64,000 nt of DNA from an uncultured Acidobacteriota bacterium (lineage in GTDB: Bacteria; Acidobacteriota; Thermoanaerobaculia; Gp7-AA8). Made by a program: the position numbers and the translations under genes. The notes beneath the pieces were generated by a model. The model worked only from the letters and a program-made list of their open reading frames with translations, ran no database searches and had not been told where the DNA came from. Within the stretch, counting starts at the first letter, position 1, and each line of letters starts with the position of its first letter. Shown here one piece after another: positions 1 through 51,688 of this stretch. The stretch covers positions 657 to 64,656 of the forward strand of contig CAWCBB010000028.1 in NCBI GenBank assembly GCA_963793695.1. The letters are read 5' to 3'.

Positions 1-160
1 TGCAGATTGCAGATTCGCGATTGACGGCCGCCGGTTTTGATTTTCGTTAATCGGCCAAGGTCATCCCCCAGAGCGGAGCGAGGATCTGGGTGGGGCAGCA
101 CTTACGCGATGGCGAAGAATGGCGCGGCCACCGATCCCACGAATCTCAATCTGCAATCGC
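1..160. repeat. Tandem-repeat-armed palindrome, TGCAGAT family (left edge cut by the window)
   Basis: TGCAGAT x2 plus a degenerate unit at 1-21. The inverted ATCTCAA TCTGCAA lies at 143-156. The core carries the box variant GTCATCCCCCAGAGCGGAGCGAGGATCTGG (60-89). Confidence 0.8.
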
Positions 161-4395: not shown

Positions 4396-4566
4396 GAAGT
4401 CAAAGGCCGGGCACGGGCGCGGGCGCGTTCACGGGCGCGGGATTCGAACCGTGATCGACTCGCAGGACAAGGTCAACGATCAACGAACATGATCTCAATC
4501 AGCAATCGTACCGCTCGGCTCCCGTGCACGCGCCCGCGCCCGTGCCCGCGCCCGGCTTTTGCGTTC
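4396..4566. repeat. Tandem-repeat-armed palindrome, hexamer GGGCRC family
   Basis: Left arm: GAAGTCAAAGG followed by 6 hexamers (CCGGGC ACGGGC GCGGGC GCGTTC ACGGGC GCGGGA) at 4407-4442. Right arm: the inverted array at 4520-4555 followed by CTTTTG. It fills the pyrR-stop to pyrB-start spacer. Confidence 0.85.
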
Positions 4567-6396: not shown

Positions 6397-6424
6397 TCCT
6401 GCCACCACCGGGAGCCAGAACGAG

Positions 6425-6455
6425 AAAGGAGGCCGCAAGGCCTCCTTTCTTTGTG
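6425..6455 (+). terminator. Rho-independent terminator after the M23 peptidase gene
   Basis: Perfect 10-bp stem AAAGGAGGCC / GGCCTCCTTT with a GCAA tetraloop, followed by CTTTGTGT. Confidence 0.7.
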
Positions 6456-6655
6456 TCTGGGTGTCTTGGGGTCTGGGAGTCTTGGCGTCGGTCTCGGCGT
6501 CTGGGTGTCTTGGGGTCTGGGAGTCTTGGCGTCGGTCTGGGAGTCGGGCGTCTCGGCGTCGGTCTCGGCGTCTGGGCGTCTTGGGGGGGTGGACTCGTGA
6601 CTCTGGACGCCTGGACCGACTCCCAGACTCCTGGACTCCAAGACCCCAAGACTGG
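6453..6655. repeat. Tandem-repeat-armed palindrome, octamer GTCTKGGN family (largest copy)
   Basis: About 17 units at 6455-6588, with a 44-nt higher-order repeat (6455 and 6499). The inverted arm has ~8 units (..GACTCCCAGACTCCTGGACTCCAAGACCCCAAGACT) at 6590-6655. There is almost no core. Confidence 0.85.
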
Positions 6656-15838: not shown

Positions 15839-15911
15839 AGAGTCGGGAGTCGGGAGTCAGGGGTTGATGGGGACGACGCCCCGCTCCCGACCCCAGACCT
15901 CCCGACTCGTC
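15839..15911. repeat. Tandem-repeat-armed palindrome, heptamer GAGTCGG family
   Basis: AGAGTCGG GAGTCGG GAGTCAG at 15839-15863. The inverted CTCCCGA CCCCAGA CCTCCCG ACTCGTC lies at 15884-15911. Confidence 0.75.
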
Positions 15912-17980: not shown

Positions 17981-18129
17981 GGATTGCGGATTGCAGATTA
18001 CCGATTGCAGATTGCAGATTGCAGATTACGGAGCCGAACAGGACCATCCCGGCATCATGCAAGGGAGGTGGCCTCATGCGGAGATGGCTCGTTCCGGCTT
18101 CGTAATCTGCAATCTGCAATCTGCAATGC
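17981..18129. repeat. Tandem-repeat-armed palindrome, TGCAGAT family
   Basis: 7 units (GGATTGC GGATTGC AGATTAC CGATTGC AGATTGC AGATTGC AGATTAC) at 17981-18029. 4 inverted units (GTAATCT GCAATCT GCAATCT GCAATGC) lie at 18102-18129. The core is itself an imperfect palindrome (GGAGCCGAACAGGACCATC / GATGGCTCGTTCCGGCTTC). Confidence 0.9.
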
Positions 18130-19617
18130 TACGACGCGCCGCGTGCCGGAGAGAACCGCCGGGATCGTGCGGAGGAGGATCTTGAAGTCGAGCGCGGGCG
18201 ACCAGGTGTCGATGTACTGGAGGTCGAGCTCCATCCAGCGGTCGAAGTCGACGCTGTTGCGGCCGCTCACCTGCCAGAGGCACGTCAGCCCCGGCTTCAT
18301 CGACAGGCGCCGGCGCTGCCACCGCTCGTAGGACCAGACTTCCTCCGGCAGCGGCGGCCGCGGGCCGACCAGGCTCATGTCGCCGCGCAGCACGTTCCAG
18401 AGCTGCGGGATCTCGTCGAGCGAGAACTTCCGGAGGACCCTTCCGACCTTCGTGACCCGCGGATCCTGGCTCGACTTGAACACCGGGCCGTTCATCTCGT
18501 TGAGATGCGCGATCTCCTCCCGCATCCGATGCGCGTCCTCGATCATCGTCCGGAACTTGTAGAGCGTGAAGATCCGGCCGTTGAGCCCGAGGCGCTCCTG
18601 CTTGAAGAGGACGGAGCCGGGCGAGGTGAAGCGGATCGCCAGCGCCGCGACGGCGAGCATCGGGAGCGTCATCAGGAGAAGGAACGCCGACGCGCAGACG
18701 TCGATCGACCTTTTGAGGGCGAGCTGGCTCACGTTGCTCGGCGTGGTCGTGAACGTGAGGAACGGGATCCCTTCCAGGTCCTCGAGCTCCACGCGCGCGA
18801 GGCGGTTGGGGAAGAAGTTCATCGCGATCCGGGTCTTGACGCCGAGCTCTTCGCACAGGAGAAACGTCGATCGGAGCGCGTCGAGCTTCCGCCGCGTGAC
18901 CGCGAAGGCGACCTCGTCGATCGCGTCCTTGTGCCCCTGGATCCCCTTCTCGACGAGCTGGCGGAGGTCCTCGAGGCTCCCGAGGATCTTGTAGCGGGTG
19001 TTCCAGCCGTTCGGCAGCCGGTGCCCGTCCGAGACGAACCCGAGGATCTTGTAACCCCAGTAGGGATGCTGCTCGATCGTCTCGACGATCTCGCGGCCGC
19101 GACGGCCGGTGCCGACGACGACGATCGTCCGGTAATTCATCCCGCGAGACCGGACGTACCGCGCGAGGATGCGGATCGCGGAACGGTTGAGGGTGAGCAG
19201 GACGCCCGCGAAGATCGGGAAGAGGATGAACCAGGTGCGCGAGAGGAGCTCGAGCCGGAGAAGATAGGCGATCGCGGCGAGCAGGAGCGTGCCGATCCCG
19301 ACGATGTGGAGCACGTCGCGGATCTCGTGGCGGATCGGGATCGTGCGGTGGCTGTGGTAGCTCTGGTGCGAGAAGAAGAGGAGCGTCCACAGGATCAGCG
19401 CGACCGGAAGGAGCTTCGCGTACTCGAGGAACGGGTAGAGGCCGGTGGGGAACGCGTGGGGGGCGATCAGCGGAAACAGGACGTCGCGGACCCAGAAGGC
19501 CAGAAAGAATGCGCCGGCGGTCAGCACGACATCGCTGAGGTAAACCAGCCTTCTGACGAGTCTTGCGTGCTGCTTGAGCATTCGCTTCCGGTTCCGCCCT
19601 GCCGCCGTCCGGCGCAA
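18055..19617 (-). CDS. Undecaprenyl-phosphate sugar phosphotransferase (WbaP/EpsB-type initiating transferase)
   Basis: 520-aa ORF with N-terminal TM helices and the C-terminal bacterial sugar transferase motifs FKFRTM, GPRPPLPEEV and KPGLTCLWQVSGRN. The last ~25 codons read through the right arm and core of a TGCAGAT element, so the native stop is probably near 18130. Confidence 0.85.
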   Translation of the reverse strand: MRRTAAGRNRKRMLKQHARLVRRLVYLSDVVLTAGAFFLAFWVRDVLFPLIAPHAFPTGLYPFLEYAKLLPVALILWTLLFFSHQSYHSHRTIPIRHEIRDVLHIVGIGTLLLAAIAYLLRLELLSRTWFILFPIFAGVLLTLNRSAIRILARYVRSRGMNYRTIVVVGTGRRGREIVETIEQHPYWGYKILGFVSDGHRLPNGWNTRYKILGSLEDLRQLVEKGIQGHKDAIDEVAFAVTRRKLDALRSTFLLCEELGVKTRIAMNFFPNRLARVELEDLEGIPFLTFTTTPSNVSQLALKRSIDVCASAFLLLMTLPMLAVAALAIRFTSPGSVLFKQERLGLNGRIFTLYKFRTMIEDAHRMREEIAHLNEMNGPVFKSSQDPRVTKVGRVLRKFSLDEIPQLWNVLRGDMSLVGPRPPLPEEVWSYERWQRRRLSMKPGLTCLWQVSGRNSVDFDRWMELDLQYIDTWSPALDFKILLRTIPAVLSGTRRVVALQIADCRLRSRNEPSPHEATSLA

Positions 19618-19786: not shown

Positions 19787-21046
19787 TCAGCGGGCCGCAA
19801 TCTCCCGGAACAACGCCTCGTAGGCGTCGACGACGCCCTCCCACGCGTAGTTCGCCCGTGCCCGTGCCCGTGCCCGTGCCCGGATCTCCGTGTCGTCCGA
19901 AGCGAGCGCGTCCGCGAGAACACGCGGGAACGAAGCCTCCCCCTCGAATCGGAAGTACCGGACCGACTCTCCCCCGACCTCCCGGTTCTCCGGCGTATCG
20001 AGCGCGAGCACGGCGCCGTTCGATCCCATCGCTTCGATCAGCGCCGGATGCGTCCCGCCGACCTCGGTCGCCTGGATGTAGATGCGCGCGCTCCGCTGCA
20101 GCGTCCGGTAATCGGCTCCGTAAATTGCGCCGGGGAGGATGACGCGCCCGCAGGGACTGCCTGCGGCGGTCCGTTTCCCGGCTGCGACTTCCTCGAGCCG
20201 CCTGATCAGCTCACTCGAATACGGCGCGCTCCCCACCATGACGAGCGGCAGATCGGTCGCCACGCGACGGAACGCCTCCGCGACCTCGAGCGGATGATTC
20301 TCCGGTTCGAAGCGGCTGACGTAGAGGACGTACCTCTCGGCCTCGAGCCCCAGCCGGTCGAGCACATCGCTATCCGGCTCCTCGGGGAAGTCCGATCCGT
20401 ACGCGATCGTCTCGGCTTCCACGGCGAACGCGTCGCGGTAGTACCGCGCGATCGTCGACGCGTCGGCGACGACGCGCGTCGAGAAGTGCGCCGCGAGCGC
20501 CTCCCCCGTCAGATAGACGACCTTCCCGAGGGCGTTCCACTTCTTCCTCTTCCGTTCGATGCCGTCGACGTTGGTCGCGACGGGAAACCGCGCGGCGCGG
20601 AGGATCGGGAGCACGAATGCGTTCGCCGCGTTGCACAAAAGGATCGCGTCGAACGTGTGCGCCGCCCGGTGTGGTGCGGGCGTCTCGCCCGCCCCTGGTT
20701 GGGCGGCTTCGTTCGAAGGGAGGCGGGCGAGGACGCCCGCACCACACGAGCCCTCGATCGCGCCGTTTTCGCGAATTGCACCCACGAAGATCGCGTGCAG
20801 CGCCGAGAGAAACGCATGCGAGACCGTCTCGAGGTACTTCTGCTCGATCGCGGGAAGGTGGACGAGCTCGATCCCTTCCCACGAAGCGGGTCGCTCGGGA
20901 TAGAGATACGAGCGGCAGTAGACCGTGACGCGGTGGCCGCGCGCGACGAGCCTGGTCCCGAGCTCCGCCGCGAACGTCTCGAATCCGCCGTAGCGCGGCG
21001 GGACCCCGCGCGTGCCGAGGATGGCGATCGAGAGAGGCGTCGGCAT
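19787..21046 (-). CDS. Glycosyltransferase family 4
   Basis: MPTPLSIAILGTRGVPPRYGGFETF N-terminus and GT4 C-terminal motifs (YIQATEVGGTHPALIEAMG). It carries three repeat insertions that keep the frame: REP doublet 20671-20745, REP 20150-20182, and (CCCGTG)4 at 19855-19878. Confidence 0.8.
   Translation of the reverse strand: MPTPLSIAILGTRGVPPRYGGFETFAAELGTRLVARGHRVTVYCRSYLYPERPASWEGIELVHLPAIEQKYLETVSHAFLSALHAIFVGAIRENGAIEGSCGAGVLARLPSNEAAQPGAGETPAPHRAAHTFDAILLCNAANAFVLPILRAARFPVATNVDGIERKRKKWNALGKVVYLTGEALAAHFSTRVVADASTIARYYRDAFAVEAETIAYGSDFPEEPDSDVLDRLGLEAERYVLYVSRFEPENHPLEVAEAFRRVATDLPLVMVGSAPYSSELIRRLEEVAAGKRTAAGSPCGRVILPGAIYGADYRTLQRSARIYIQATEVGGTHPALIEAMGSNGAVLALDTPENREVGGESVRYFRFEGEASFPRVLADALASDDTEIRARARARARANYAWEGVVDAYEALFREIAAR
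19855..19878. repeat. (CCCGTG)4 hexamer run inside the GT4 coding sequence
   Basis: It reads as ..IRARARARARA.. in frame. It is the same unit as the GGGCRC arm family, in reverse complement. Confidence 0.7.
20150..20182 (+). repeat. REP (GCAG variant) inside the GT4 gene
   Basis: GCAGGGACTGCC TGC GGCGGTCCGTTTCCCGGC. It is 33 nt, in frame (AGKRTAAGSPC on the coding strand). Confidence 0.8.
20671..20745. repeat. REP-A doublet inside the GT4 gene
   Basis: GTGGTGCGGGCGTCTCGCCCGCCC, a 27-nt spacer, then GGCGGGCGAGGACGCCCGCACCAC. It is 75 nt, or 25 codons, in frame. Confidence 0.9.
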
Positions 21047-22946: not shown

Positions 22947-23094
22947 TGCAGATTGCTGATCGCAGATTGCAGATTGAAAGTCAAAAACCGGGCGCGGGCG
23001 CGTTCACGGGCGCGCCCCCCTCGCCCCGTGAGCGAAGCGAACGGGGAGAGGGGCCGGGGGTGAGGGGCAATCTGCAATCTGCAATCTGCAATCA
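22947..23094. repeat. Tandem-repeat-armed palindrome, TGCAGAT family, with nested modules
   Basis: Left arm TGCAGAT TGCTGAT CGCAGAT TGCAGAT at 22947-22974. Right arm GCAATCT x3 plus GCAATCA at 23067-23094. Inside are a single GGGCRC arm (GAAAGTCAAAAACCGGGCGCGGGCGCGTTCACGGGCGCG, 22973-23013) and a CCCCGT..ACGGGGAGAGGGGCCGGGGGTGAGGGG box (23015-23067). Confidence 0.9.
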
Positions 23095-25100: not shown

Positions 25101-25127
25101 GAATTGCAGATTGCAGATTGCAGATTA
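25101..25127. repeat. One-armed TGCAGAT array
   Basis: TGCAGAT x3 at 25105-25125, between the stop at 25125-25127 and the start at 25079. I see no inverted partner. Confidence 0.7.
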
Positions 25128-27187
25128 CCGATCCCGTTCGATGCGATCGAACGTGATCGCGCCGCGAGTCACGCGAATCGCGGGCCGTTGGTGCTGACGT
25201 TCAGTGGGAAGTTTGACGAAGCCGTCGCCCGTCGGCGGTACTTCGTGGATCCGGCCGTCGATCTCGAAAGACCCTCCATTCTCCGCGCGCACGTGGATCG
25301 TCGCGGGCCCCGGCTGCATGCGGAAGCGCATCGATTCGCCTTCGCCGAGCCGCCACCCTCCCGTGAAGCGGAAGCGCGCGACGGTCCAGATCTCCGGGTC
25401 GAGCAGGCCCTGGCGGTGATCGACGTGCACGTCTTCGAATTGAACCACGGAACCGGGGCGCAGCCCCGCCGCGAGGAAGAGCGTGAGCGCGAGAGCTGCG
25501 ACGATCGCGGCGGCGCGGCCTGTGGTGCGGGCGTCCGCCCGCCCAGGAGGGCGGCATCCCCCACCCGAGGCGGGCGAGACGCCCGCACCACACCGAACGC
25601 CACGATCGCGATGAGCAGCAGGATCGCCGCGGCCCACGCCGCGCCGTTCGGCCGGATGAAGCTCGGCAGCAGCCGCGAGAAATCGCTTCCGAAACGGATC
25701 GACAGCCATTCGCCGAGCACCGACTCGCCGCTCGCGATGTGGAAGAGGCGCCAGGGGAACGCGACGCCGTGGACGGCGAGGAGCGCGGTCCAGACCGCGA
25801 CGGGCGCGAGCCATGCGCGCGTCCGCTCGAGCAGCGCGCCCGCGGAGACCGCGACCAGCGGCGCGAACACGACCAGATAGCGCAGCGGCGGCGACCAGCC
25901 GCCATGCCACTCTTCGCGCGGCAGGAGGAGGATCAGATACGGGACAGCGGCGATCGAAGCTGCACGGATCGCGAAGTGACTCGTTCTCCGTTCTCCGTTC
26001 TCCGTTCTCCGCGGCAGGGGCTCGTCTTGCGCCGACGGAACGGCGTTTGCGCCGGAGAACGGAGAACGGAGAACGGAGAACGCCTTTGTGAGAGCAGCAA
26101 CGAGTGCCGCGAACCAGACAGGCGCTTGCAGCAGCATCCCCGCCTGCCCGTCGAGGAGCAGCCCGAACATGCCGCGCGCGTATTTCCAGAGCGACGCCGG
26201 CGCGAGCTCACTCCACCGATGCACCTGGAGAGGGTTGCCGACCAGGAGCCAGCCGCCGAGGAGCGGAAGGGCGACGACCGCCGCGAGCGCGAGCGCGAGT
26301 TTCCGCGCGCCTCGGTCGGAGATCACGACGACGAGCGCGAACACGGCCGCGATCGCCATGAAGCGGAGTTGCAGGAGCGAGAGAGCGACGAGCCACGCCG
26401 CCAGCCGGCCGTACTTCCGCTTCCCCGCGGCCCGCATCGCTTCGCTCAGGCAGAGGGCTCCCGGAACCTCCGGCCAGATGCGCACCGCGTAGAAAAGGAA
26501 GGGAGGGGCGAACGCGAGGAGCGGCCAGAGGCGAAGCGCCGCCTTGCGGGAAACGCCGTGCTCCTCGGTGAGCGCGAAAATCGATCCGACGGCGGCCGCG
26601 CCGAGGAGCGCGATCGTCGCCATGGCGCCCCATAGGCCGCCGAGGGCGACCCCCGGGACGAGCAGGAGCGGCAGGAACGGCTCGTGCCGCGCGTAGATCT
26701 CCCCCGCCGGCCCGACGGGATCGAACGGCTGCGGCTGGAGATCCAACCGCTGCGTCGCGGACCGCTCGAGGTGCGCGTACTGGTTCGCGAGATCGAGATC
26801 GCGGTCGTGAAGGATCGACTCCGCGATCAGCACGTAGTACGGCTCGTCGCCGTCGATCGGCCAGGCGAGCGTCTCGGTTCCCACGATCAGGAAGATCGCG
26901 GCGGCGAAGACCGCGGCCGCGCGCGGCGACCACCGCACTTCGCCTGCGGGAACGAGCGCGCACCAGAGAAGGAAGTGCGCGAGCTTCGCCGCGACGACGA
27001 TCGCGAGGAGAAGCGAGGGGGCTAGATGGACCCCGAGCGCGCCGGCGGAAGCGAGGGAGCCGCCGAGGGCGACCCACGTCGCCACGTCGGAGATCACGAA
27101 GCGGCGGCGATGGAGAGGGAGAAACCAGTGCGGCGCGGCGCTGATCAGCGCCGCGAAAAGGATGAGGAGGATCTGCTCGCGCGTCAT
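25125..27187 (-). CDS. Large polytopic GT-C-like (ArnT/PMT_2-like) membrane glycosyltransferase, frame switched at a REP doublet
   Basis: More than 12 hydrophobic segments and a DGDEPYYVLIAESIL first-loop motif. ORF 25169..27187 is protein-like down to the REP doublet at 25522-25591. Downstream of it, the protein-like frame is that of ORF 25125..25910 (..VVQFEDVHVDHRQGLLDPEIW..). The gene also contains the 99-nt GGAGAAC palindrome at 25983-26081 in frame. Confidence 0.6.
25522..25591. repeat. REP-A doublet inside the GT-C gene, 70 nt, coincident with the frame switch
   Basis: The first hairpin reads GCGGGCGTCCGCCCGC, one nt shorter than GCGGGCGTCTCGCCCGC in the other copies. Confidence 0.85.
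25983..26081. repeat. Tandem-repeat-armed palindrome, GGAGAAC family, inside a CDS
   Basis: GTTCTCC x4 (25983-26010), a 43-nt core, then GGAGAAC x4 (26054-26081). The total is 99 nt, or 33 codons, read through in frame as SVLRSPFSGANAVPSAQDEPLPRRTENGERR. Confidence 0.9.
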
Positions 27188-28941: not shown

Positions 28942-29052
28942 AAATGCAAAATGCAAAATGCAAAATGCAAAGTCCAAGAAAGGGTCGAGGATCCTGGCGT
29001 CGAAACCCTTTTTGCATTTGTCATTTTGCATTCTGCATTTTGCATTTCTTCT
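28942..29052. repeat. Tandem-repeat-armed palindrome, AT-rich AAATGCA family
   Basis: AAATGCA x4 at 28942-28969. The inverted TTTGCAT TTGTCAT TTTGCAT TCTGCAT TTTGCAT lies at 29011-29045. The core holds the hairpin AAAGGGT..ACCCTTT. Confidence 0.9.
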
Positions 29053-31844: not shown

Positions 31845-32588
31845 GTGCGCGTTCTCCTGACGCTGCAATACCTCGGCACGCGCTACGCCGGGTGGCAGTC
31901 GCAGGAGAACGCGCTCGCGGTCCAGCAGGTCGTCGAGGCCGCTCTCGGCACGCTCTGCCGCGAGCCGGTCCGCGTCGTCGGCGCCAGCCGCACCGACGCG
32001 GGCGTTCACGCCGAGGATCAGAAGGCGCACTTCGACCTGCCGATCCCCATCGGTCTCCGGGGCCTCCTCCTCGGGCTCAACGACCTGCTGCCGAGAGACG
32101 TCCGCGCGATCGCGGCGCGCGAGGTCGCGCCCGACTTCCACGCGCAGCATCGCGCGATCGCGAAGACCTACCGCTATCAGATCTGGAACGGGGAGATCGC
32201 CGACGTCTTCCGCGCCGCGACCTGGGCTCACGTCCGCGCGCCCCTCGAGCTGGGGCTGATGATCGAAGCCTCGCGCGCCCTGGTCGGGCCGCACGACTTC
32301 CGCGCATTCACCGTCGTGGAGCCGGAGGTCGCCTCGACCGAGCGGGCGATCGACGGCCTCGAGCTGAGCGGGGAGGGCCCGGCCATCACCATGCGCGTGA
32401 CGGCCGCGGGCTTCCTCCGCTACATGGTCAGACGCATCGCCGGCCAGCTCATCGAGATCGGCCGGGGCAAGCTGCCGGTCGACGCGGCCGCCGCCGCCCT
32501 CGAGCCGACCTTCGCCGAAGCGCGCTGGACCGCGCCGCCGGAGGGGCTGGTCCTCGAGCGGGTCCGTTATGAGGACGAGGACGAATGA
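31845..32588 (+). CDS. truA: tRNA pseudouridine(38-40) synthase
   Basis: GASRTDAGVHA catalytic motif. 247 aa with a GTG start. Confidence 0.9.
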   Translation: MRVLLTLQYLGTRYAGWQSQENALAVQQVVEAALGTLCREPVRVVGASRTDAGVHAEDQKAHFDLPIPIGLRGLLLGLNDLLPRDVRAIAAREVAPDFHAQHRAIAKTYRYQIWNGEIADVFRAATWAHVRAPLELGLMIEASRALVGPHDFRAFTVVEPEVASTERAIDGLELSGEGPAITMRVTAAGFLRYMVRRIAGQLIEIGRGKLPVDAAAAALEPTFAEARWTAPPEGLVLERVRYEDEDE

Positions 32589-32733
32589 GTCCAGGAGTCC
32601 AGGAATCTAAGAGTCTTGGCGTCCGAAATTCAGCGTCCGCGATGCGGATCGGACCGTTTCGGGGCGTCCCGATTGCTGCATTCAGGTGCTGACCGCCGAC
32701 TCCCAGACGCCAAGACTCGTGGACTCCCGACTG
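32587..32733. repeat. Tandem-repeat-armed palindrome, octamer GAGTCCAG family
   Basis: 5 octamers at 32587-32626, starting inside the truA stop codon. 5 inverted octamers lie at 32694-32733. Confidence 0.85.
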
Positions 32734-34470: not shown

Positions 34471-34568
34471 GGTCTGGGGGTCTAGGGGTCCCGCGCCCGG
34501 GCCCGCGCCCGGACCCGCGCCCGGCCTTTGACTTCTGGACTCGATACCGCCCTCGCGCCTAGACTCGG
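34471..34568. repeat. Composite: octamer GGTCTGGG arms enclosing a single GGGCRC-family arm
   Basis: GGTCTGGG GGTCTAGG GGTCCCGC (34471-34494), then CCGCGC CCGGGC x3 plus TTTGACTT (34491-34534), then the inverted CTGGACTC..CTAGACTC (34535-34566). It ends about 6 nt before the dxr ATG. Confidence 0.8.
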
Positions 34569-34573
34569 CGCGC

Positions 34574-35753
34574 ATGCGCCGCATCTCGATCCTCGGCTCC
34601 ACCGGCTCCATCGGCCGCAGCACTCTCGCGGTCGTCGACGCCTTCCCCGACCGGCTGGAGGTCATCGCCCTCTCCGCGGGGCGCAACGTCGAGGTCCTCG
34701 CCGAACAGGTCCGCCGCTACCGCCCGCAGCTCGTCTCCCTCGGCCACGAGGCCGACGAGCCGCGCCTTCGCGAGCTTCTCGGACCCGAGGACCCTCCCGA
34801 GATCGTCTGCGGCAGCGAGGGGGCGCGCGCGGTCGCGACGCACCCCGGCTCGGACACCGTGATCGCGGCGATCGTCGGCGCGGCCGGGATTCCTCCCGTC
34901 TACGACGCCCTCCTCCGCGGCAAGCGCGTCGGCATCGCGAACAAGGAAGTCCTCGTCGCCGCGGGCGACCTGATGACCGAGGCCGCGCGGAAGCATGGAG
35001 GCGAGATCCTTCCGGTCGACTCCGAGCACAACGCCGTGCACCAGGCGATCCGCTGCGGCGGCCATGACGAGATCCAGCGCATCATCCTCACCGCCTCCGG
35101 CGGGCCGTTCCTGCGGCGCGACATCGCGACCTTCGGCGAGATCACCGTCGACGCCGCCCTCGCGCATCCGACCTGGAAGATGGGGAGCAAGATCTCGATC
35201 GACTCCGCGACGATGATGAACAAGGGGCTCGAGGTCATCGAGGCGCATCACCTCTTCGGGCTCGAGGCCGACCGGATCGACATCATCATCCACCCGCAGT
35301 CGATCGTTCACTCGATGGTGGAGTTCGTCGACGGATCGATCATCGCGCAGATGTCGACCGACCGACATGAAGTTCCCGATCCAGTACGCCCTCCTCTATC
35401 CCGAGCGCACCCCCGCTCCCTTCGCCCGCCTCGACCTCGGCAAGATCCGGCAGCTCGAGTTCCTCCAGGTCGAACCGGAACGTTTCCCGGCGGTCGCGCT
35501 GGCGTACGAAGCCCTCTCCGCCGGCGGCTCCGCGCCGGCCGTGCTCAACGCCGCGAACGAGATCGCCGTCAGCCGGTTCCTCCACGGCGAGATTCCGTTT
35601 CTGAGCATCGTGGAGATCGTCCGCACGGTCTTCGACAAGCACCTCCCCTCGCGCGCCCCCCTCGGCTCCATCGACGACGCCCTCGAGTGGGACCGCTGGG
35701 CGCGCAATGAAGCGCGCGGAGTGCATGTTGCTCAAGTAGTCGGGGAGAAGTAG
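34574..35753 (+). CDS. dxr: 1-deoxy-D-xylulose-5-phosphate reductoisomerase, one frame disruption
   Basis: ILGSTGSIG, DSEHNA, SGGPF, HPTWKMG and NKGLEVIEA lie in ORF 34574..35710. The C-terminal domain (MKFPIQYALLYPER...) lies in ORF 35367..35753. The switch is near 35356-35366. Confidence 0.9.
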
Positions 35754-35891
35754 GCAGGGAGAAGGGTCCCCCCCCGACCGGGTGGCACGATCTTCGATGA
35801 GCGAAACCGCGGTCCCTATCGGGTCGTACTGAATTGGAACGGATCCCGGTCACGCGAACCCTTCTCCCTGACTCCATTTCCCTGACTACAA
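35735..35891. repeat. Tandem-repeat-armed palindrome, 14-nt unit GGGAGAAGTAGGCA
   Basis: Left arm at 35735-35769, overlapping the last dxr codons and the TAG stop. Right arm CTTCTCCCTGACTCCATTTCCCTGACTAC at 35861-35889. The rseP ATG is at 35896. Confidence 0.75.
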
Positions 35892-37224: not shown

Positions 37225-38191
37225 GGGAGCGCGGGCGTCCTCGCCCGCCGTTGCGGCGGCGTCCCGCCGCCGATCCGCAATGGCGCCGCGGGACGCGGCG
37301 CCAACGGCGGCCGAGACGGCCGCGCCCCTGAAGGCTTTCCGAGGTACACTTTCCCTCCCACCTTCGCTCTCTGACGCTGCCTGCTTCGGCGACGTCAAAT
37401 GAGAACCACACGAACGATCCTCTATTCAACAACTGCGCATCTGAGGATCCGCGGCCGGTCCCGCCTTCCACACTTCGAGCTGGATCACGCGATCTATTTC
37501 GTCACCTGGCGACTCGCCGATTCGCTGCCGCAGCATGTCGCAGAGGATCTGCAGAAGGAATGGAAGTGGCTGGGTGAGCAGCTTCAGACGCGCGAAATGA
37601 CGCCCGCCGCACGGAGCGCTCTGTTGAGTCACTATTCGAAGACATACGAGGGGGCTCTCGACGAGGGGTTCGGCTCCTGCATTCTTTCGAATCGCGACGC
37701 GGCGCACATCGTCCAGGGAGCACTCCTCTTTTTCGACCAGCAGCGGTACGACCTGTTCGCCTGGGCGGTAATGCCCAACCACGTTCACGTCGTGTTCTTC
37801 CTTGAGAGAGGAGACCAACTGGATCGCGTACTCCATTCGTGGAAGTCGTTCACGGCACATCGAATCAACCAACGTCTCGACCGGCGCGGAAAACTGTGGC
37901 AGGACGAGTACTTCGACCGGATTGTCCGCGACGAGCGCGAGCTCGAGCAGACGATTCAATACGTGATCAACAACCCCGCCGCGGCGGGCATGCAGGACTG
38001 GCCTTTCGTCGGAGCAAAGTTCCGGGGAATTGAATAACGGAGCAGCTGCAGCTGGTGTCGGGCGTCCTCGCCCGCGACAGGGGCGCGGGCGTCCTCGCCC
38101 GCCGTTGCGGCGGCGTCCCGCCGCCGCCAGATCCGGATACAAGGCGCCGCGGGGACGCGGCGCCAACGGCGGCCGGGACGGCCGCGCCCCT
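37225..38191 (+). mobile_element. RAYT gene with flanking compound REP-B palindromes
   Basis: Left flank 37225-37329 and right flank 38080-38191 are near-identical ~105-nt units: GGG(A/G)GCGCGGGCGTCCTCGCCCGCCGTTGCGGCGGCGTCCCGCCGCCG..GGCGCCGCGGGACGCGGCGCCAACGGCGGCCG(A/G)GACGGCCGCGCCCCT. An extra half hairpin lies at 38055-38079. Confidence 0.7.
37399..38037 (+). CDS. REP-associated tyrosine transposase (RAYT, IS200/IS605-like Y1 HUH enzyme)
   Basis: 212 aa with the HUH motif PNHVHVVF, the catalytic-Tyr motif IQYVINNPAAAG, and the N-terminal RLPHFELDHAIYFVTWRL. It is flanked on both sides by compound REPs. Confidence 0.8.
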   Translation: MRTTRTILYSTTAHLRIRGRSRLPHFELDHAIYFVTWRLADSLPQHVAEDLQKEWKWLGEQLQTREMTPAARSALLSHYSKTYEGALDEGFGSCILSNRDAAHIVQGALLFFDQQRYDLFAWAVMPNHVHVVFFLERGDQLDRVLHSWKSFTAHRINQRLDRRGKLWQDEYFDRIVRDERELEQTIQYVINNPAAAGMQDWPFVGAKFRGIE

Positions 38192-38227
38192 GTGGGACCC
38201 ATCACGATCGCGAACCAACGCGCCGTG

Positions 38228-39507: not shown

Positions 39508-39702
39508 ATTGCAGATTGCAGATCTCGGATTGCAGATTGGCGTCGGCCCCATCACTCCGCCATTTCAAGACTACGCGTCATGCGCCTCCCCCACCCAGAT
39601 CCCTCGCTACGCTCGGGATGACATGAGCGCGAGTAGCTGCCTCCGCGCCCGTGCACGCGCCCGCGCCCGCGCCCGGTTTTTCCAATCTGCAATCTGCAAT
39701 CA
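39508..39702. repeat. Tandem-repeat-armed palindrome, TGCAGAT family, with nested modules
   Basis: Left arm at 39508-39538. Right arm AATCTGC x2 plus AATCACG at 39684-39704, overlapping the ABC-F stop. Inside are the inverted box CCAGATCCCTCGCTACGCTCGGGATGACATG (39595-39625) and a single GGGCRC arm (39644-39683). Confidence 0.9.
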
Positions 39703-41623: not shown

Positions 41624-41761
41624 GATTGCGGATTGCAGATTGCAGATTGCAGATTACGGAGCCGGACGGAGCGTTTCTCTCTCCGAACGACCCTCGGCAC
41701 TGCAAACCACGAGCGCTAGCGTACAATTGCACCGATTCTCAATCTGCAATCTGCAATCGAC
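41624..41761. repeat. Tandem-repeat-armed palindrome, TGCAGAT family
   Basis: 5 units at 41624-41658. The inverted units GATTCTC AATCTGC AATCTGC AATCGAC lie at 41734-41761. The core begins TACGGAGCCGGAC, as in the 17981 copy. It lies between the divergent ABC-F and pdxJ starts. Confidence 0.9.
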
Positions 41762-42500: not shown

Positions 42501-42630
42501 AAATGCAAAATGCAAAATGACAAATCCAAAGGGGGAGCTCGGTTCTCTCCCTGAATCAGCGTCCCTGCCCCACGCACGGTTCTCTTTTTGGATTTTTCAT
42601 TTTGCATTTTGCATTTTGCATTTTTCTTCT
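42501..42630. repeat. Tandem-repeat-armed palindrome, AT-rich AAATGCA family
   Basis: AAATGCA AAATGCA AAATGAC AAATCCA at 42501-42528. The inverted ..CATTTTG x3.. lies at 42584-42630. It is preceded by a perfect 9-bp GC hairpin GCCGGCGGC TTC GCCGCCGGC (42480-42500). It lies between convergent genes. Confidence 0.9.
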
Positions 42631-43575: not shown

Positions 43576-43770
43576 TGCAGATTGCAGATCGCAGATCGCA
43601 GATTGCAGATTAGCTCTCTACCGCAGGCTGCGGATTATAGGATGTCATCCCGAGCGTAGCGAGGGATCTGGGCGGAGGACGCGCGTAACGCGGCTTCGTT
43701 CTCAGGCGGGATCCTCAACCCCACGCCCGATCAGCAATCCCCAATCCCCGATCCGCAATCCCCAATCCGG
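43576..43770. repeat. Tandem-repeat-armed palindrome, TGCAGAT-related, diverged right arm
   Basis: TGCAGAT/CGCAGAT x5 at 43576-43610. The box GATGTCATCCCGAGCGTAGCGAGGGATCTGG lies at 43641-43671. The right arm GATCAGC AATCCCC AATCCCC GATCCGC AATCCCC AATCCGG lies at 43729-43770. Confidence 0.8.
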
Positions 43771-44312
43771 CATATACCGATCGATAGATACCGCCTCGCC
43801 CCCTCCCCTGCCACAATCCCCCTGCGCCCTGAGCGGCGATTGCTGATCCCGCGTGGGGAACGATCTGACCGGAGCGTTCTCCCGCCTTCAGCAATCGTCG
43901 GTCCGGGCGACCGTGGAACCGATCCCCTCCCTCACCGACAATGGGTCCGGGAGCCCGGCCATTTTTCTCAGCAGCGATCCATCGAGCGCGTTCCGCGCGC
44001 GATCGTCACCGCGCGCGGGACTCCGCTCGACCGTGCCGCGCATCCCGAGCGCTTCCTGCACGATCTCCCACACGTCCGCGATCGAGGTCTCCACGCCGGT
44101 ACCGACGTTGAACGCCCCCGCGAGCCGCTGATCCGCGGCCGCCAGGTTCGCCCGTACGACGTCGCCAACGAAGATGAAGTCGCGAGTCTGCCCCCCATCC
44201 CCCGCAATCTTCGCCGCCTCCCCTCGACGCAGTGCATCCGCAAAGCGAGCAATCACCGAGCGATCCCTCGACCTCTCATTCAAAAGAGGAGCGACATCGC
44301 CGCGCGTCAGTA

Positions 44313-44371
44313 CCCTCTCCCCGCTGACGGCGGGGAGAGGGTGGCCGAGCGAAGCGAGGCCGGGTGAGGGG
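44313..44371. repeat. Hairpin box CCCTCTCCCCGC TGAC GGCGGGGAGAGGG + GAGCGAAGCGAGGCCGGGTGAGGGG inside the epimerase paralog
   Basis: Related to the box at 23015-23067. It is read through as ..PLPAVSGERV.. Confidence 0.7.
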
Positions 44372-44794
44372 TACGCGCGATCCGAGCTCGAGTTCGGGTC
44401 GGGCGGCGGGAGGAGACCCTCGTAGAGATTGGCGTACCGAAGAATCGTGAGCCCCACACCCCGCGAAGTGCACACCGCAGAAACCGCCCGCTCCACCGCC
44501 AGCTTCGACCGCCCGTTCGCCGTATTCGGCCGCAGCGCATGCGTCTCCGAAATCGGCAGCATCTCCGCGTCCCCATACACGAAGCCGCTGGAAGCCAGCA
44601 CGACGTGCGAAGCCCCGCCGTCGATCGCCGCCTCGACGAGTCGCGCGGATCCGAGAACGTTGACGCGCCGGTCCTCCTCCTCGCCGGCATTCAAGGCCGC
44701 CAGGTCATACGCGAGATGGTGCACGACGTCGGCGCCCGCCTCGCGGACGGCACCCTCGAGCACCGGATCCCCGAGCGATCCTTCGATGGCGGCG

Positions 44795-44827
44795 TTCGGG
44801 ACCGCCTGCGGCGGTCCGTTTCCCGCC
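44795..44827 (+). repeat. REP inside the epimerase paralog, at its frame switch
   Basis: TTCGGGACCGCC TGC GGCGGTCCGTTTCCCGCC. Confidence 0.8.
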
Positions 44828-45105
44828 TTTCGGAAACCGCCGAACCGCCGCCACGACCTCGTCTCCCCTCTCCAGATACGCCCGAACGAGGCGCGCCCCC
44901 AGAAACCCGGTCGCGCCGGTGATCAGCACCCTCATGCGATTCATTGTAGATCGCGCCCTCGCCGGCGCCCCGTCCCAGCCGGGCTCCCGTTCACACGCTT
45001 TCCGTCACCTCGACCTTTGACTTATGCGGTTCGATATATCGACGCCTCGCACGAAAAGGGGCGATCCTCGTTCCACCCGGGAATCGACCTGGACGGGGGC
45101 TGGCC

Positions 45106-45483
45106 ATGGCCATTCTGCATCCGACGCGAATCATCACGAATGAGAAGCCGTGGGGCACGGAGCTCGTTCTCGCGCAGAACGACAGTTACGTCGGGAAGCT
45201 GCTCCATCTCAGGCGCGGTGAGTCGGTCAGCCGGCACTATCACACCGAGAGGAGGGAAACGCTCTATCTCCTCTCCGGGACCGTGCTCCTCACTCTCCGC
45301 ACCCCGAGAGAGATGCAGGTCACGACCATGGCGCGCTCGGAGGCGTACCACATCCCGCCGGGCCTCACGCACTGGCTCGAGGCGGTCGAGACTTCCGAGA
45401 TCCTCGAGATCACCTCGGCCGCGCCCGAACCGATCCCGCGCCTCGACGCCTCCTACGCCCGCTCCGAATCGTCGGCGCCCTGA
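45106..45483 (+). CDS. Cupin domain protein (mannose-6-phosphate isomerase type II C-terminal-like)
   Basis: 125 aa with EKPWGTE...GESVSRHYHTERRETLYLLSG...YHIPPGLTHWLE. Confidence 0.7.
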   Translation: MAILHPTRIITNEKPWGTELVLAQNDSYVGKLLHLRRGESVSRHYHTERRETLYLLSGTVLLTLRTPREMQVTTMARSEAYHIPPGLTHWLEAVETSEILEITSAAPEPIPRLDASYARSESSAP

Positions 45484-45553
45484 CCGGCGGGGTGGCGGCT
45501 CTGGACTGCGGGCAGCGGCCGTTCCCCGGCGCCGCCGGCACGATCCAAATTGG

Positions 45554-45585
45554 CCCCGTAGGGCCGCACAGCGTGCGGCCGTTTC
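45554..45585 (+). repeat. GTAG-type REP
   Basis: CCCCGTAGGGCCGCAC AGC GTGCGGCCGTTTC. Confidence 0.8.
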
Positions 45586-45884
45586 TGATGCAGTCGAGCG
45601 GAGCTCTCGTGTCGCTTGACGAAATCCATTCGTGGGCGCGCGGGCGCGGCTAAACGCCTGCTTCGCAAATCTCGCGTCAGTATGAGCCTGCCCGAAAAAG
45701 TGCAGCAGGTCGTCGAGTTGCAGAAGATTGCAGTGACCACGATTCGGCGACGCAGGCCCTTACGCGACATTGAGCGCGTTTGGCCGCTCCGTCACCCATG
45801 ATCCGTCCAGGCAGGCGGTGCGATCTTCAACCGACTCTGGCGCTTGACCGCGGATGATCGCGGCGAACACCTCACGCCGCCGCG

Positions 45885-45945
45885 GTGACCGGCCCGCTTG
45901 AGCCGACGAACGAGGCGTACGCGGTCGCGAAGGATCGCGGGGCTC
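45885..45945 (+). pseudogene. Short remnant resembling GDP-L-fucose synthase
   Basis: TGPLEPTNEAYAVAK matches the conserved L-TGPLEPTNEPYAIAKIAG block of fcl/WcaG. No further similarity is visible on either side. Confidence 0.25.
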
Positions 45946-45952
45946 AATACAG

Positions 45953-45985
45953 CGCCGTAGCGGCGCACAGCGTGCGCCGTTCCCC
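45953..45985 (+). repeat. GTAG-type REP
   Basis: CGCCGTAGCGGCGCAC AGC GTGCGCCGTTCCCC. Confidence 0.8.
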
Positions 45986-46067
45986 GGTCGGGTGGGGGCT
46001 TTGGACTGCGGCAGCGGCAGCGGCCGCTTTCGAATTCAGGCTACCCCGTACCCGCTATACTCGGGCG

Positions 46068-46343
46068 ATGATCTCCCCTGCTCTCCCTGGAGCGGACATG
46101 ATTCGGCAGGGCCTCGATGACCTCGGCCGCGGAGCCGAGACCGTTCCGGCGCTGCTCGTCCGGATCGGAGCGCCTCGGCTGCGCGGGATCGGCATCGACG
46201 TTCCACACGTCGACGGCGACGACGCCGAAATCAGGCTCTACGAGCTTCTGGCCAGCTCGGATCCGGACGCCGCGCACTCCCGGTACAACGCACTCATCAG
46301 GCTCCTCGTGAGCTTCGAGCGGGCGGCCGAATGCGCGAGTTGA
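46068..46343 (+). CDS. Small protein, putative partner of the downstream nucleotidyltransferase
   Basis: 91 aa, overlapping the next gene by 13 nt. I recognise no domain. Confidence 0.4.
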   Translation: MISPALPGADMIRQGLDDLGRGAETVPALLVRIGAPRLRGIGIDVPHVDGDDAEIRLYELLASSDPDAAHSRYNALIRLLVSFERAAECAS

Positions 46344-46870
46344 CGGACGCCGAACGTCTGGGGCATCTCATGCGCGCGCTCGGAGCTGAGGCGCGAATCG
46401 AAACACGCGCGTACCTGACCGGCGGCTCGAGCGCGGTTCTGATCGGATGGCGTGGAACCACCGTCGATGTAGACCTGAAATTCGAGCCGGACGACGACCG
46501 CGTGCTGCGCGCAATTCCTGAGTTGAAGGAGCGACTGAAGATCAACATCGAACTCGCCTCCCCCGGCGATTTCATCCCGGAGCTCCCGGGCTGGCGCGAG
46601 CGAAGCGTCTTCATTGTCAGAGAGGGGACAATCGACTTCCTCCATTACGACTTCTATGCGCAGGCGCTCTCGAAGATCGAGCGCAGCCACGCCCGCGATC
46701 TCGGCGACGTCCGGGAGATGATCGCTCGCAAACTCGTCAATCCGGAAAAGCTCCTCGAGCTGTATGCGCTCATCGAACCTGGCTTGTACCGCTATCCCGC
46801 ACTCGACCCGGATTCTTTCCGCTCGCGGGTCGAAGCCGTCGCGCGAGGCGAGCTCGCGATCGAGCCATAG
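46331..46870 (+). CDS. Minimal nucleotidyltransferase-fold protein (DUF6036/AbiEii-like)
   Basis: 179 aa with YLTGGSSAVLIGWRGTTVDVDL (the G[GS]-x9-13-DxD NTase signature). Confidence 0.6.
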   Translation: MRELTDAERLGHLMRALGAEARIETRAYLTGGSSAVLIGWRGTTVDVDLKFEPDDDRVLRAIPELKERLKINIELASPGDFIPELPGWRERSVFIVREGTIDFLHYDFYAQALSKIERSHARDLGDVREMIARKLVNPEKLLELYALIEPGLYRYPALDPDSFRSRVEAVARGELAIEP

Positions 46871-46894
46871 CGGCCGCGGGCGCCGTCTCGTCGC

Positions 46895-46926
46895 GTAGGG
46901 ACCGGCTGCGCCGGTCCGTCTTCGCC
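46895..46926 (+). repeat. GTAG-type REP after the nucleotidyltransferase gene
   Basis: GTAGGGACCGGC TGC GCCGGTCCGTCTTCGCC, 25 nt after the TAG stop. Confidence 0.8.
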
Positions 46927-46985
46927 TGCGGCTGGGCACGAGATCCTCGGCTTCGAACCGCGCGTCGCCGAAGCCCTGATCCGTT

Positions 46986-48653: not shown

Positions 48654-48654
48654 T

Positions 48655-49395
48655 TCATGCCGGCGGTCCTTCGAACCCGCCGTGCTCGTCACCGACGATC
48701 TGTCGCGGATTATCGATGAAGAGAGCGCGCTCAGCCTCGTCTCCCCAGTTGGCCCGAACCCACTCCCTCGCCCTCTTCATGCGCGGCGGTCGCTGGTCCT
48801 CTGAATGAGCGTCCGACGCGACGACGTGAATCAAACCCATTTCATTGAAAGCCAGCGCAGTCTCGAAGGCGCCGCGTCCGAACTCGCCGATCAGGCTTCC
48901 CGCCGTCACTTGCGTTCTCGCACCGATCCTGACCAGTGATGCGAGGCGCTGCGGGTTGGCGGCGAGCTCGAGATTCCGTTCGGGGTGTGCCACCACCACA
49001 GTGATCCCGATCAGGGCCAACTCGTGGAACACGAGTTCGGCCTCGCGCGGAACGGAAAGTGCCGGAAACTCGATCAGGATGTGGCTTCCCCGGTTCAGCG
49101 TCGTCAGCGGGCCATGCTCTCCTGCTTCGAGGAGCTCGGGGAGATCGGGAGTGAAGTAGACCTCGCATCCAGGCAGGATCGCGGGGGTCCCTCCGAGCAG
49201 ATCGTTCAGCCGGAGAATCGAAGCGTCACGGACGGCGCAGTCGGCGTTGATCCAGGGATCTCGGAGGACGTGCGGCGTCGCGACGATGGTTTCGGTCCCT
49301 TCGTCCGCGGCCGCTCGGCAGAGATCCACCGCTTCGGTCCACGATCGAGGGCCGTCATCCAGAAAGGGAAGACAATGAAAATGCACATCCGTCAT
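48655..49395 (-). CDS. CpsB/Wzh-type PHP-domain protein-tyrosine phosphatase
   Basis: MTDVHFHCLPFLDDGP, ATPH, AHPER and ASDAHS. Confidence 0.8.
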   Translation of the reverse strand: MTDVHFHCLPFLDDGPRSWTEAVDLCRAAADEGTETIVATPHVLRDPWINADCAVRDASILRLNDLLGGTPAILPGCEVYFTPDLPELLEAGEHGPLTTLNRGSHILIEFPALSVPREAELVFHELALIGITVVVAHPERNLELAANPQRLASLVRIGARTQVTAGSLIGEFGRGAFETALAFNEMGLIHVVASDAHSEDQRPPRMKRAREWVRANWGDEAERALFIDNPRQIVGDEHGGFEGPPA

Positions 49396-49455
49396 GAATT
49401 CGAATCAGGCCGAGGAAACCGACGCTGGGGCTCACTAGAACACGCTGCAGGCAGG

Positions 49456-51676: not shown

Positions 51677-51688
51677 GGGCTTCTCCGC

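Follow-up and report, generated by a model that had tools for sequence, protein, structure and literature searches.

Tandem heptamer arrays that face each other as inverted pairs are known from Xanthomonas, where 70-75 'convergent' pairs of GGGAATC arrays capable of forming stem-loops or cruciforms are found per genome (Rehm et al. 2015, PLoS One, PMC4692102). The arrays contain 2-26 units, paired arrays always lie one per strand in convergent orientation, about 90% of the arrays are intergenic and near the ends of open reading frames (ORFs), and they are transcribed, with function unknown. They are kept between the same genes across species, and copy number shifts while the single or paired type is preserved (PMC4692102). 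Here, 16 loci of this kind are described in a stretch of 64,000 nt, termed the window, from an uncultured bacterium of the Thermoanaerobaculia (Acidobacteriota; GenBank contig CAWCBB010000028.1, positions 657 to 64,656; about 68% GC). An earlier note, made from the letters of the window alone, had taken these loci as one architectural family and had not recognised the combination of variable units and inverted arms. All 16 loci were found in place with the units assigned to them, and the common architecture was borne out. The same architecture, however, is published for cyanobacterial hairpins (see below) and for the Xanthomonas GGGAATC pairs. The note itself had named a match to a described repeat family as a reason to give up novelty; since the elements match a described class, the novelty of the architecture falls.

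Several filamentous cyanobacteria (Anabaena, Nostoc, Lyngbya) carry hairpins of 7-bp STRR (short tandemly repeated repetitive) sequences between hupS and hupL; their function is unknown, and stability or translational coupling was suggested (PMC2670836). The window resembles these genomes in tandem heptamers, in the presence of several units per genome and in hairpins within operon spacers, but STRR hosts are filamentous or heterocystous cyanobacteria with units of their own, whereas the window belongs to an acidobacterium of the GC content given above with other units. STRR reportedly also occur inside the RNase P RNA gene, as the title of a 1997 paper by Vioque has it. Pairing, which is the rule among the window arrays, is the exception in Nostoc 7120, where few of the GGGGATT arrays are paired (PMC4692102). 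An over-representation of heptameric repeats, for which polymerase slippage was suggested, goes back to Mrazek et al. 2007, as cited in PMC4692102. The heptamer TAACTGA is common to Beggiatoaceae, Cyanobacteria and Bacteroidetes, mostly in intergenic regions beside start codons; horizontal transfer is suspected, the mechanism is not known, and a single inverted repeat was found in 170 sets (MacGregor 2015, PMC4679880). It shares with the window unit TGCAGAT the occurrence of one exact heptamer in distant phyla, but TAACTGA arrays are direct and contain forward stop codons, while the window arms are inverted and stop-free. Repetitive extragenic palindromic (REP) sequences, given in a passage of PMC3733652 as imperfect palindromes of 20-40 nt with a GTAG or CGTC tag, are comparable to the window elements, as are BIME and REPIN, in forming intergenic hairpins, inverted doublets and mosaics, in being tolerated in operons and in the presence of a RAYT-like Y1 gene. 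Unlike REPs, the window arms are tandem 6- to 8-mers without such a tag, and the Y1 gene of the window is not flanked by arrays, whereas RAYT genes of REP/REPIN systems are flanked by their own repeats.

The reading we favour, held with confidence that is about evenly balanced, is that the window contains self-maintaining, non-coding palindromic simple-sequence elements, operating at the DNA level and belonging to the class of the STRR hairpins and convergent GGGAATC pairs. In the open-access literature, string and keyword searches revealed no description of such elements in Acidobacteriota, Chloroflexota or Planctomycetota, and no earlier description of the polarity rule, the compensatory unit changes or the in-frame insertions reported below was found there.

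Palindromic repeat elements in the window

The 16 loci amount to 2,195 nt, or 3.4% of the window. Their layout begins with repeats of a short unit, continues with a core of 41 to ~110 nt and closes with repeats of the reverse complement (Table 1). Tandem Repeats Finder (TRF) detected 21 arrays of period 7, 16 of period 6 and eight of period 8, compared with about 1.7, 1.7 and 1.4, respectively, in 50 dinucleotide-preserving shuffles. If pairs are required to have the same period, reverse-complementary consensus sequences with at most one mismatch and a gap of at most 300 nt, eight inverted pairs are present in the window and none in any of the shuffles. A chance origin of arrays and pairs is excluded.

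Four syntenic loci from relatives were available for comparison, L119 (90% RseP identity), L120 and L121 (84%), and L122 (75%). L120 (JGI) and L121 (ENA) are independent assemblies of one relative; over 12,189 nt they are 99.975% identical, with three substitutions, no insertions or deletions and equal copy numbers in all arrays. An assembly artefact as the source of the arrays, for which the earlier note had proposed a check, was therefore rejected. The identical copy numbers also indicate that the arrays are not hypervariable.

Among the 15 loci that have two arms, 12 were predicted to form a single long hairpin (z = -3.8 to -9.1 relative to shuffled sequences). The long periodic hairpins that had been claimed are thus found at most loci, but 34471-34568 folds at shuffle level, and 43576-43770 and 39508-39702 fold weakly on the + strand. 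In 43576-43770 the arms are mismatched in unit, with TGCAGAT on the left and AATCCCC, the complement of GGGGATT, on the right, contrary to the earlier note, by which both arms of a locus use the same unit. Arm copy numbers are often unequal and 25105-25125 is indeed a single arm. With Rfam covariance models, applied at the gathering threshold and at E<=0.5, no family was matched; the elements gave chance hairpin matches only (E 0.17-0.46).

The cores of the window elements are mosaics of other small repeats. In the window, the junction GAAGTCAAARRCCGGGC followed by GGGCGC-type hexamers has six matches (0.05 expected) and the module CATCCCGAGCGTAGCGAGGGATCTGGG occurs three times (0 expected); a third core module, CCCCTCGCCCCGTGAGCGAAGCGAACGGGGAGAGGGG, recurs in a relative. 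An inner inverted repeat, ATTACGGAGCCG..CGGCTTCGTAAT, is common to loci 17981 and 41624, and ATTACGGAGCCG is also present in one L120 element. The position of the cores became clear from three features: GATTGCAATC is a palindrome in its own right, the arms end in preferred registers, with forward arms finishing in ..GATT or ..GATTG in 23 of 31 cases and reverse arms opening with CAATC in 16 of 31, and the loops, 3 to 180 nt long, are different in all 31. The cores therefore sit at the centre of an otherwise perfect palindrome. The outer register of the arrays is also non-random, with a start at (G)ATTGCAG in 93 of 145 cases. Inspection of 24 elements and of the ends of 145 arrays revealed neither a target-site duplication nor a flank motif.

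The window elements are like the Xanthomonas pairs in their tandem heptamers and convergent pairing, in their largely intergenic location close to where ORFs end, and in staying between the same neighbouring genes from one relative to another. They differ in several respects. Xanthomonas has one G-rich unit per genome, which was read as a G-quadruplex (G4), while at least six units, of 6, 7, 8 and 14 nt, are present in 64 kb of the window, and most of these lack the four or more GGG runs of the Xanthomonas G-tract criterion. The cores are mosaics of repeat modules, unlike the Xanthomonas pairs, and in-frame insertions, compensatory unit change and a general polarity rule are not reported for Xanthomonas. 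The variety of units also bears on the possibility that the arrays are binding sites at the DNA level or non-B DNA such as G4 or i-motif, which we regard as very unlikely. Strict periodicity would be in accord with it, as would the recurrence of a GATTG core (GATTGCA, GATTGCT, GATTGGG, GATTGAT, GATTGAC, GATTGTT), the G4 formation by GGGAATC and GGGGATT repeats that was shown in vitro (PMC4692102), and the binding of heptamer repeats by CspB, one protein per heptamer, as reviewed in PMC4679880. However, TGCAGAT, AAATGCA, GGAGAAC and GAGTCGG contain no GGG run, so that G4 is not a common property; only GTCTGGG, the hexamers and the AATCCCC arm have G-tracts of the required kind. A single binding protein could not read such different units within one genome, and the frequency of GATTG-core units among all fetched loci is biased by the way in which these loci were sampled.

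Table 1. Palindromic repeat elements of the window
Element	Position	Strand	Structure and folding (a)	Context and further features
Element cut by window start	1-160		left arm (TGCAGAT)2.1 at 1-15, right arm AATCTCAATCTGCAATC at ~141-157; z = -4.3	core holds a diverged copy of the CATCCC..GGGATCTGGG module
Hexamer element	4396-4566		junction GAAGTCAAAGGCCGGGC 4396-4412, (CGGGCG)n 4408-4441, core, (CCCGCG)n 4521-4554; z = -8.2	inverted junction at 4550-4566; between pyrB-like start (4368) and PRTase stop (4569)
Octamer element (b)	6453-6655		left ~16 copies of GTCTKGGN (6453-6584), right ~4.5 clear complement copies (6618-6653); z = -8.1	18 G-U pairs in the fold, + strand only
GAGTCGG element	15839-15911		(GAGTCGG)2.7 at 15840-15858 and degenerate CCGACTC arm; z = -3.9	abuts stop codon (15912) of the upstream minus-strand gene
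TGCAGAT-type element	17981-18129		(GATTGCA)6.6 at 17982-18027, 76-nt core, (AATCTGC)3.4 at 18104-18127; z = -9.1	right arm and part of core encode last 24 aa and stop of sugar-transferase ORF 18055-19617(-)
Spacer-filling element	22947-23094		(TGCAGAT)4.6, junction-plus-hexamer module 22977-23014, module CCCCTCGCCCCGTGAGCGAAGCGAACGGGGAGAGGGG, (GCAATCT)3.9; z = -8.6	entire spacer from glycosyltransferase stop codon (23092-23094) to start codon of the next glycosyltransferase (22946)
Single forward arm	25103-25126	+	(ATTGCAG)3.4; reverse partner absent within 300 nt	degenerate TTGTTGA-like heptamers just upstream
In-frame element, 99 nt	25983-26081		(GTTCTCC)4.3, 41-nt core, (GGAGAAC)4.3; z = -8.7	
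AAATGCA element	28942-29052		(AAATGCA)4.3, core, (TGCATTT)5.4; z = -7.5	
Octamer element	32587-32733		GAGTCCAG arm 32587-32615 and degenerate complement; z = -3.8	begins at truA stop codon, within the truA-uppS-cdsA-dxr-rseP row
Weak member	34471-34568		(GGTCTRGG)2.5, (CCCGCG)n with inverted junction 34519-34535, poor right arm; z = -0.2	
14-nt-unit element	35735-35891		arm 35734-35764 (2.2 copies) and degenerate complement; z = -5.3	ends 4 nt ahead of rseP start codon; core motif GGCACGAWCTTCGAT kept in 90% and 84% relatives, where the stems differ
TGCAGAT-type element	39508-39702		(ATTGCAG)4.6, inverted module CATCCCGAGCGTAGCGAGGGATCTGGG 39594-39620, (CCGCGC)5.5, (CAATCTG)2.7; + strand z = -2.5	minus-strand MFE -90.9; (CAATCTG)2.7 arm overlaps ABC-F stop codon
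TGCAGAT-type element	41624-41761		(GATTGCA)4.6, 84-nt core, (CAATCTG)2.7; z = -5.2	divergent spacer between ABC-F and pdxJ start codons
AAATGCA element	42501-42630		(AAATGCA)3.3, core, (TGCATTT)5.6; z = -8.2	convergent spacer between pdxJ and epimerase gene
Hybrid element	43576-43770		(ATTGCAG)5.4, CATCCC..GGGATCTGGG module 43646-43672, (CAATCCC)4.9; + strand z = -1.6	minus-strand MFE -92.7, via G-U pairs

a z, folding relative to shuffled sequences; MFE, minimum free energy.

b A canonical terminator-like hairpin with a T-run (AGAAAGGAGGCCGCAAGGCCTCCTTTCTTT) is located at 6423-6452, directly upstream of this element; the element itself is not the terminator of the M23 peptidase gene.

Two further hexamer arrays were noticed. 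A perfect (GCCCGT)4.8 array without partner lies at 19854-19882, near the 3' end of the minus-strand ORF 19787-21046; it belongs to the single hexamer arms to which the earlier note had referred. At 54338-54775, in the 5' region of a DUF2339 gene, an extra junction-plus-hexamer arm is present (GAAGTCAAAAGCCGGGC followed by (CGGGCG)4.7), the inverted hexamer partner of which is located 374 nt away in a Pro/Ala-rich linker of the same gene; the two may form a seventeenth element whose core is coding, or their arrangement may be coincidental.

Insertion, persistence and paired arm change in syntenic relatives

The truA-uppS-cdsA-dxr-rseP row of L122 has spacers of only 86, 37, 8 and 8 nt, while elements of 100-280 nt are found at the same truA-rseP junctions in the window, L119 and L120. 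In the truA-uppS spacer the arms consist, depending on the lineage, of GAGTCCAG, TTGTTGC or TGCAGAT, and the element is absent in some relative. The elements behave as insertions that arrive at tight gene junctions and occasionally in protein loops in frame. They persist at their sites through speciation, and array copy numbers differ between the window and both the 90% and the 84% relatives.

At persisting sites, the arms stay complementary while the sequence of the unit changes. The ABC-F/pdxJ spacer contains (GATTGCA)3...(TGCAATC)2 in the window; in L119 the core is conserved and is enclosed by (GATTGCT)3...(AGCAATC)2. Upstream of dapF (x552-dapF spacer), (AAATGCA)4/(TGCATTT)3 of the window corresponds to (GAATGCA)3/(TGCATTC)2 of L119, and every array there retains one leftover unit of the other type. 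For 28942-29052, the 90% relative has GAATGCA / TGCATTC arms in the corresponding spacer. In 42501-42630, the unit variant AAATCCA of one arm has its counterpart, TGGATTT, at the symmetric place in the other.

A further case is provided by L136, from the 84% relative, whose membrane protein is 73% identical to that of the window. It has a non-repetitive hairpin in the same protein loop as 25983-26081, with the stem TTCACCG..CGGTGAA where the window has the 4+4 array TTCTCCG..CGGAGAA. One 7-nt stem segment is therefore single-copy in one lineage and a symmetric array in the other. A motif common to both hairpins lies in different parts of each. The idea, taken from an alignment of the protein loop, that arms had been added around a native segment was rejected, as L136 has an older hairpin there.

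Sites, orientation and possible origins

Positions relative to genes were assessed on a rough map of our own, backed by Pfam and by gene calls on the syntenic relatives. In the first 44 kb, elements fill about 14 of about 17-20 real spacers of at least 50 nt, but none of the 16 loci is located in the last 20 kb; the earlier statement that nearly every long spacer is occupied holds only for 1-44 kb. The spacers are co-directional, convergent (42501) or divergent between start codons (41624), and many arms contact the adjoining stop or start codon at a distance of 0-30 nt. Location in spacers, as had been described, also applies to most loci, with the exception of 25983-26081, which is in frame in a membrane-protein gene, and of 17981-18129, the right arm of which encodes the C-terminus of a sugar transferase. 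The region 44000-53000 has a lower GC content (0.62-0.65), weak coding scores and no heptamer hairpin; it carries genes of the polysaccharide-export and chain-length type (GNVR/AAA_31, Poly_export).

The element 25983-26081 lengthens, by 33 codons and in frame, a loop of the conserved membrane protein encoded by the minus-strand ORF 25169-27187 (about 640 aa). The extra residues are confined to the window and its 90% relative, the loop is short in 14 of 18 aligned homologs, and the public gene call P0121, a 100% identical membrane protein, runs through the element. TGCAGAT hairpins were also detected in frame in four proteins of other phyla, a Gemmataceae Ser/Thr kinase (..HRDLKPANI[LLQIADCRLQIDNKSAICNLQSAI]PKITDFGLA..), an Oscillochloris histidine kinase, a P-type ATPase and a membrane protein. 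The arms are free of stop codons in all six frames and, due to the period of 7, each reading frame gives the same peptide repeat; peptide segments such as IADCRLQ..SAICNLQ are thereby added to kinases and transporters. Insertion in frame is shared with the Rickettsia palindromic elements (RPEs), which are found between genes and within coding genes, where they add a peptide segment. RPE families have a conserved consensus of ~100-150 bp, however, whereas the copies described here have nothing but the arm unit in common and all differ in their loops.

These sites have to be considered if the hairpins are thought to be selected locus by locus at the RNA level, as bidirectional terminators, RNase III sites, 3'-end stabilisers or for stop-start translational coupling, an explanation that appears improbable to us. 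Long and stable hairpins whose arms lie within 0-30 nt of stop or start codons would suit such roles, and pairing survives complete change of the arm sequence at orthologous spacers. Furthermore, elements of the AAATGCA type finish in U-rich runs on either strand, resembling bidirectional terminators, and G-U pairs give the transcribed strand a much better fold at 6453 and 39508. Stability or translational coupling is the role suggested for STRR hairpins (PMC2670836), and transcription is reported for most of the Xanthomonas repeats (PMC4692102). The elements are nevertheless unlikely to serve a dedicated function as RNA, because all types of spacers and also proteins are hit, a row of essential genes is interrupted, the transcribed strand does not regularly fold better than the other (more stable in just 5 of 11 loci) and a terminator scan revealed no enrichment of terminator-like sites. 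The divergent promoter spacer and the in-frame sites in five proteins offer no such role, termination is impossible within the essential row, which is tightly packed in a relative, and neither tandem-repeat arms nor a fixed polarity would be required. Intrinsic terminators differ as well, since only the AAATGCA type ends in U-runs and elements are also present in a divergent spacer and in ORFs.

The orientation of the arms was determined beyond the window. An exact scan for (TGCAGAT)3 with one genome per species yielded at least 118 loci, and the matches listed include Chloroflexota, Acidobacteriota, Planctomycetota, Verrucomicrobiota, Gemmatimonadota, Armatimonadota and others. Among these listed matches, TGCAGAT pairs no more than 300 nt apart were arranged forward-then-reverse in 26 cases and reversed in none. 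Three reversed pairs, each with only two copies per arm, were present in 241 million metagenome records, and viral contigs contained three forward elements and no reversed one. In the fetched loci as a whole, TRF analysis revealed 102 inverted pairs; these fall into 41 unit classes, none of which was found in both polarities. The 5' arm has more G than C in 28 classes versus 6 (p = 2e-4) and is purine-rich in 32 versus 9 (p = 4e-4), p-values that are optimistic since the classes are mutually related; its T-A bias (13:23) shows that it is not G/T-rich. Orientation is thus almost absolute, with the purine- or G-rich array mostly 5' of the dyad on either strand. IMG/VR 'viral' contigs contain the same forward-then-reverse hairpins with units GATTGCA, GATTGCG and GATTGAC (L126, 1236-1312 and 2946-3026; L127, 3004-3065; L140, L143, L159 and L170). 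In a comparison with heptamers of matched composition, (TGACGAT)3 was found in 41 viral contigs, (TGCAGAT)3 in 14 and (TCGAGAT)3 in one. TGACGAT rotates to GATTGAC and belongs to the GATTG group, so that it is no neutral control, and it is therefore not claimed that TGCAGAT is special.

Strict polarity would be given by defined ends if the elements were non-autonomous transposons of the MITE (miniature inverted-repeat transposable element) or foldback type, the arrays being terminal inverted repeats on which a transposase acts in trans, with spread by cutting or copying. We consider such an origin unlikely. The non-random outer register, the new copies within conserved genes, the occurrence of one unit in many phyla, which is consistent with horizontal spread, and the inner repeat common to 17981, 41624 and an L120 element would all fit. 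The foldback (FB) and Galileo elements of Drosophila offer a parallel, with unequal inverted arms of tandem subrepeats and a variable or absent middle; these eukaryotic elements are kilobase-sized, mobilised by transposase and associated with target-site duplications, none of which was found at the inspected sites here. A classical MITE is unlikely because no target duplication, no common internal sequence and no cognate transposase was found in the loci fetched. MITE copies share internal sequence, whereas the loops differ in sequence as well as length and some comprise only 3 nt. No parental insertion sequence with these ends was present in the fetched loci, and no array-bounded transposase gene in about 1.5 Mb of them. 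In addition, the elements stay at orthologous sites with little sign of turnover.

The only transposase-like gene of the window, a Y1 gene (IS200/RAYT-like, PF01797) at 37399-38037, has other flanking repeats, and a link to it was rejected for this reason. It is located between two direct GC-rich copies of ~105 nt, 37226-37330 and 38082-38195, which contain small hairpins (GCGGGCGTCCTCGCCCGC and others) unrelated to the arrays. In relatives, the Y1 gene at this place is flanked by GTAG-type REPs, which they have at no other site seen, and L122 has a PF05635 gene instead. Genes of this '23S rRNA intervening sequence' four-helix-bundle family lie exactly between forward and reverse arrays in L122 (10511-11162) and L002 (1104-1740), that is, in two acidobacterial classes and with different units. 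Arrays adjoin all seven sampled PF05635 homologs, but the comparison with other spacers of the same loci (10/12 versus 11/18, p = 0.25) leaves the link not established. Most PF05635 homologs (P0242-P0360) are on contigs of 0.5-3 kb, which fits flanking repeats that break short-read assemblies.

Polarity is also predicted if the elements are scars of healed chromosome breaks, in which a repeat-adding activity, comparable to telomerase in the healing of chromosome ends, would have extended both 3' ends with one 6-8-nt unit before head-to-head fusion, sometimes with capture of filler. This scenario seems quite unlikely. The added strands would run 5'->3' towards the centre and hence forward-then-reverse; unequal arms, a unique loop in each element, a centre occupied by repeat modules or by an entire gene, and the absence of target-site duplications are expected as well. 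Appearance inside conserved genes is covered by the same process, and judged from the known domain consensus, the usual connecting residues seem to be lost at the kinase and histidine-kinase insertions. Telomerase repeat lengths include the range of 6-8 nt. However, no candidate enzyme or template was identified, and at least six unrelated units in 64 kb would need several templates or long divergence in situ. The 5' arm is purine-rich instead of G/T-rich, the preferred registers at both array boundaries need extra assumptions, and the arms of the hairpin that L136 has at the site of 25983-26081 are not repetitive.

Two other features of the window were noticed. A match to the small RNA (sRNA) Acido-Lenti-1 at 53259-53304 (-) scored 39.9 bits (Rfam gathering cut-off 37), and a second, weaker one (26.3 bits) is located about 370 nt away on the opposite strand at 53677-53709 (+), both in the spacer upstream of a NusG-like gene (53729-54298). 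At 57856-58323, a 166-nt unit is repeated 2.8 times with 91% identity (TRF score 775), spanning the 3' end of the DUF2339 ORF (55671-58076) and reaching into the spacer before a TgpA-like gene (58762-60312).

Proposed maintenance of the elements and implications

How self-maintaining palindromic elements, the explanation favoured here, could be kept is inferred from the established mechanisms of slippage, hairpin-templated correction and centre repair. Arms would lengthen or shorten in steps of ~7 nt through replication slippage, and a change in one arm would be copied to the other by intrastrand, hairpin-templated template switching, i.e. quasipalindrome correction. Taken together, the two processes explain concerted arm changes and symmetric arrays. 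Perfect centres would tend to break and be repaired, and breakage and repair at the palindrome centre explain the unique loops. The host would keep only those insertions that fold compactly, are stop-free and leave the C-rich arm exposed only once its G-rich partner has been transcribed; compact folding and freedom from stops are the properties to which the tolerance of the elements is attributed. Such a filter could allow elements to sit within operons and ORFs. The polarity may be due in part to selection that disfavours stop codons, spacers lacking structure and C-rich RNA left exposed. What the elements do to the cell is probably a side effect, in the form of an additional loop in a protein or a long hairpin in the RNA between two cistrons.

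Several points weigh against this explanation. Slippage and template switching can maintain and reshape a palindrome, but they cannot place a TGCAGAT hairpin in a kinase gene; an insertion step is indicated by the almost invariable orientation and by the appearance of one unit at new sites. A selective filter by itself would hardly produce a polarity this strict, which suggests a mechanistic cause. The presence of the same unit in many phyla and at seven window loci argues for copying or templated synthesis over local genesis. Slippage, already proposed in the earlier note, agrees with the copy-number differences that set the window apart from its 90% and 84% relatives, but it was not directly seen, copy numbers being unchanged between L120 and L121. 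Pairing that is kept through sequence change would also be expected from selection on RNA structure. Finally, the window and the 90% relative have identical 33-residue inserts in proteins that are otherwise 82% identical, which could reflect constraint.

The architecture is already known and not new; the window is a further case of it in new phyla. An over-representation of heptamers in bacteria has been noted since 2007, and the literature consulted still offers no explanation for it. New constraints for a mechanism are the polarity across units and phyla, the co-evolution of arms at fixed loci, the unique centres, and the insertion into tight junctions and protein loops. In practice, the elements break short-read assemblies, leaving many adjoining genes on contigs of ~1 kb, and they lengthen public gene calls such as P0121 and add peptide segments. 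If the polarity is mechanistic, many soil phyla would carry in these loci the direct trace of a DNA transaction that is as yet uncharacterised.

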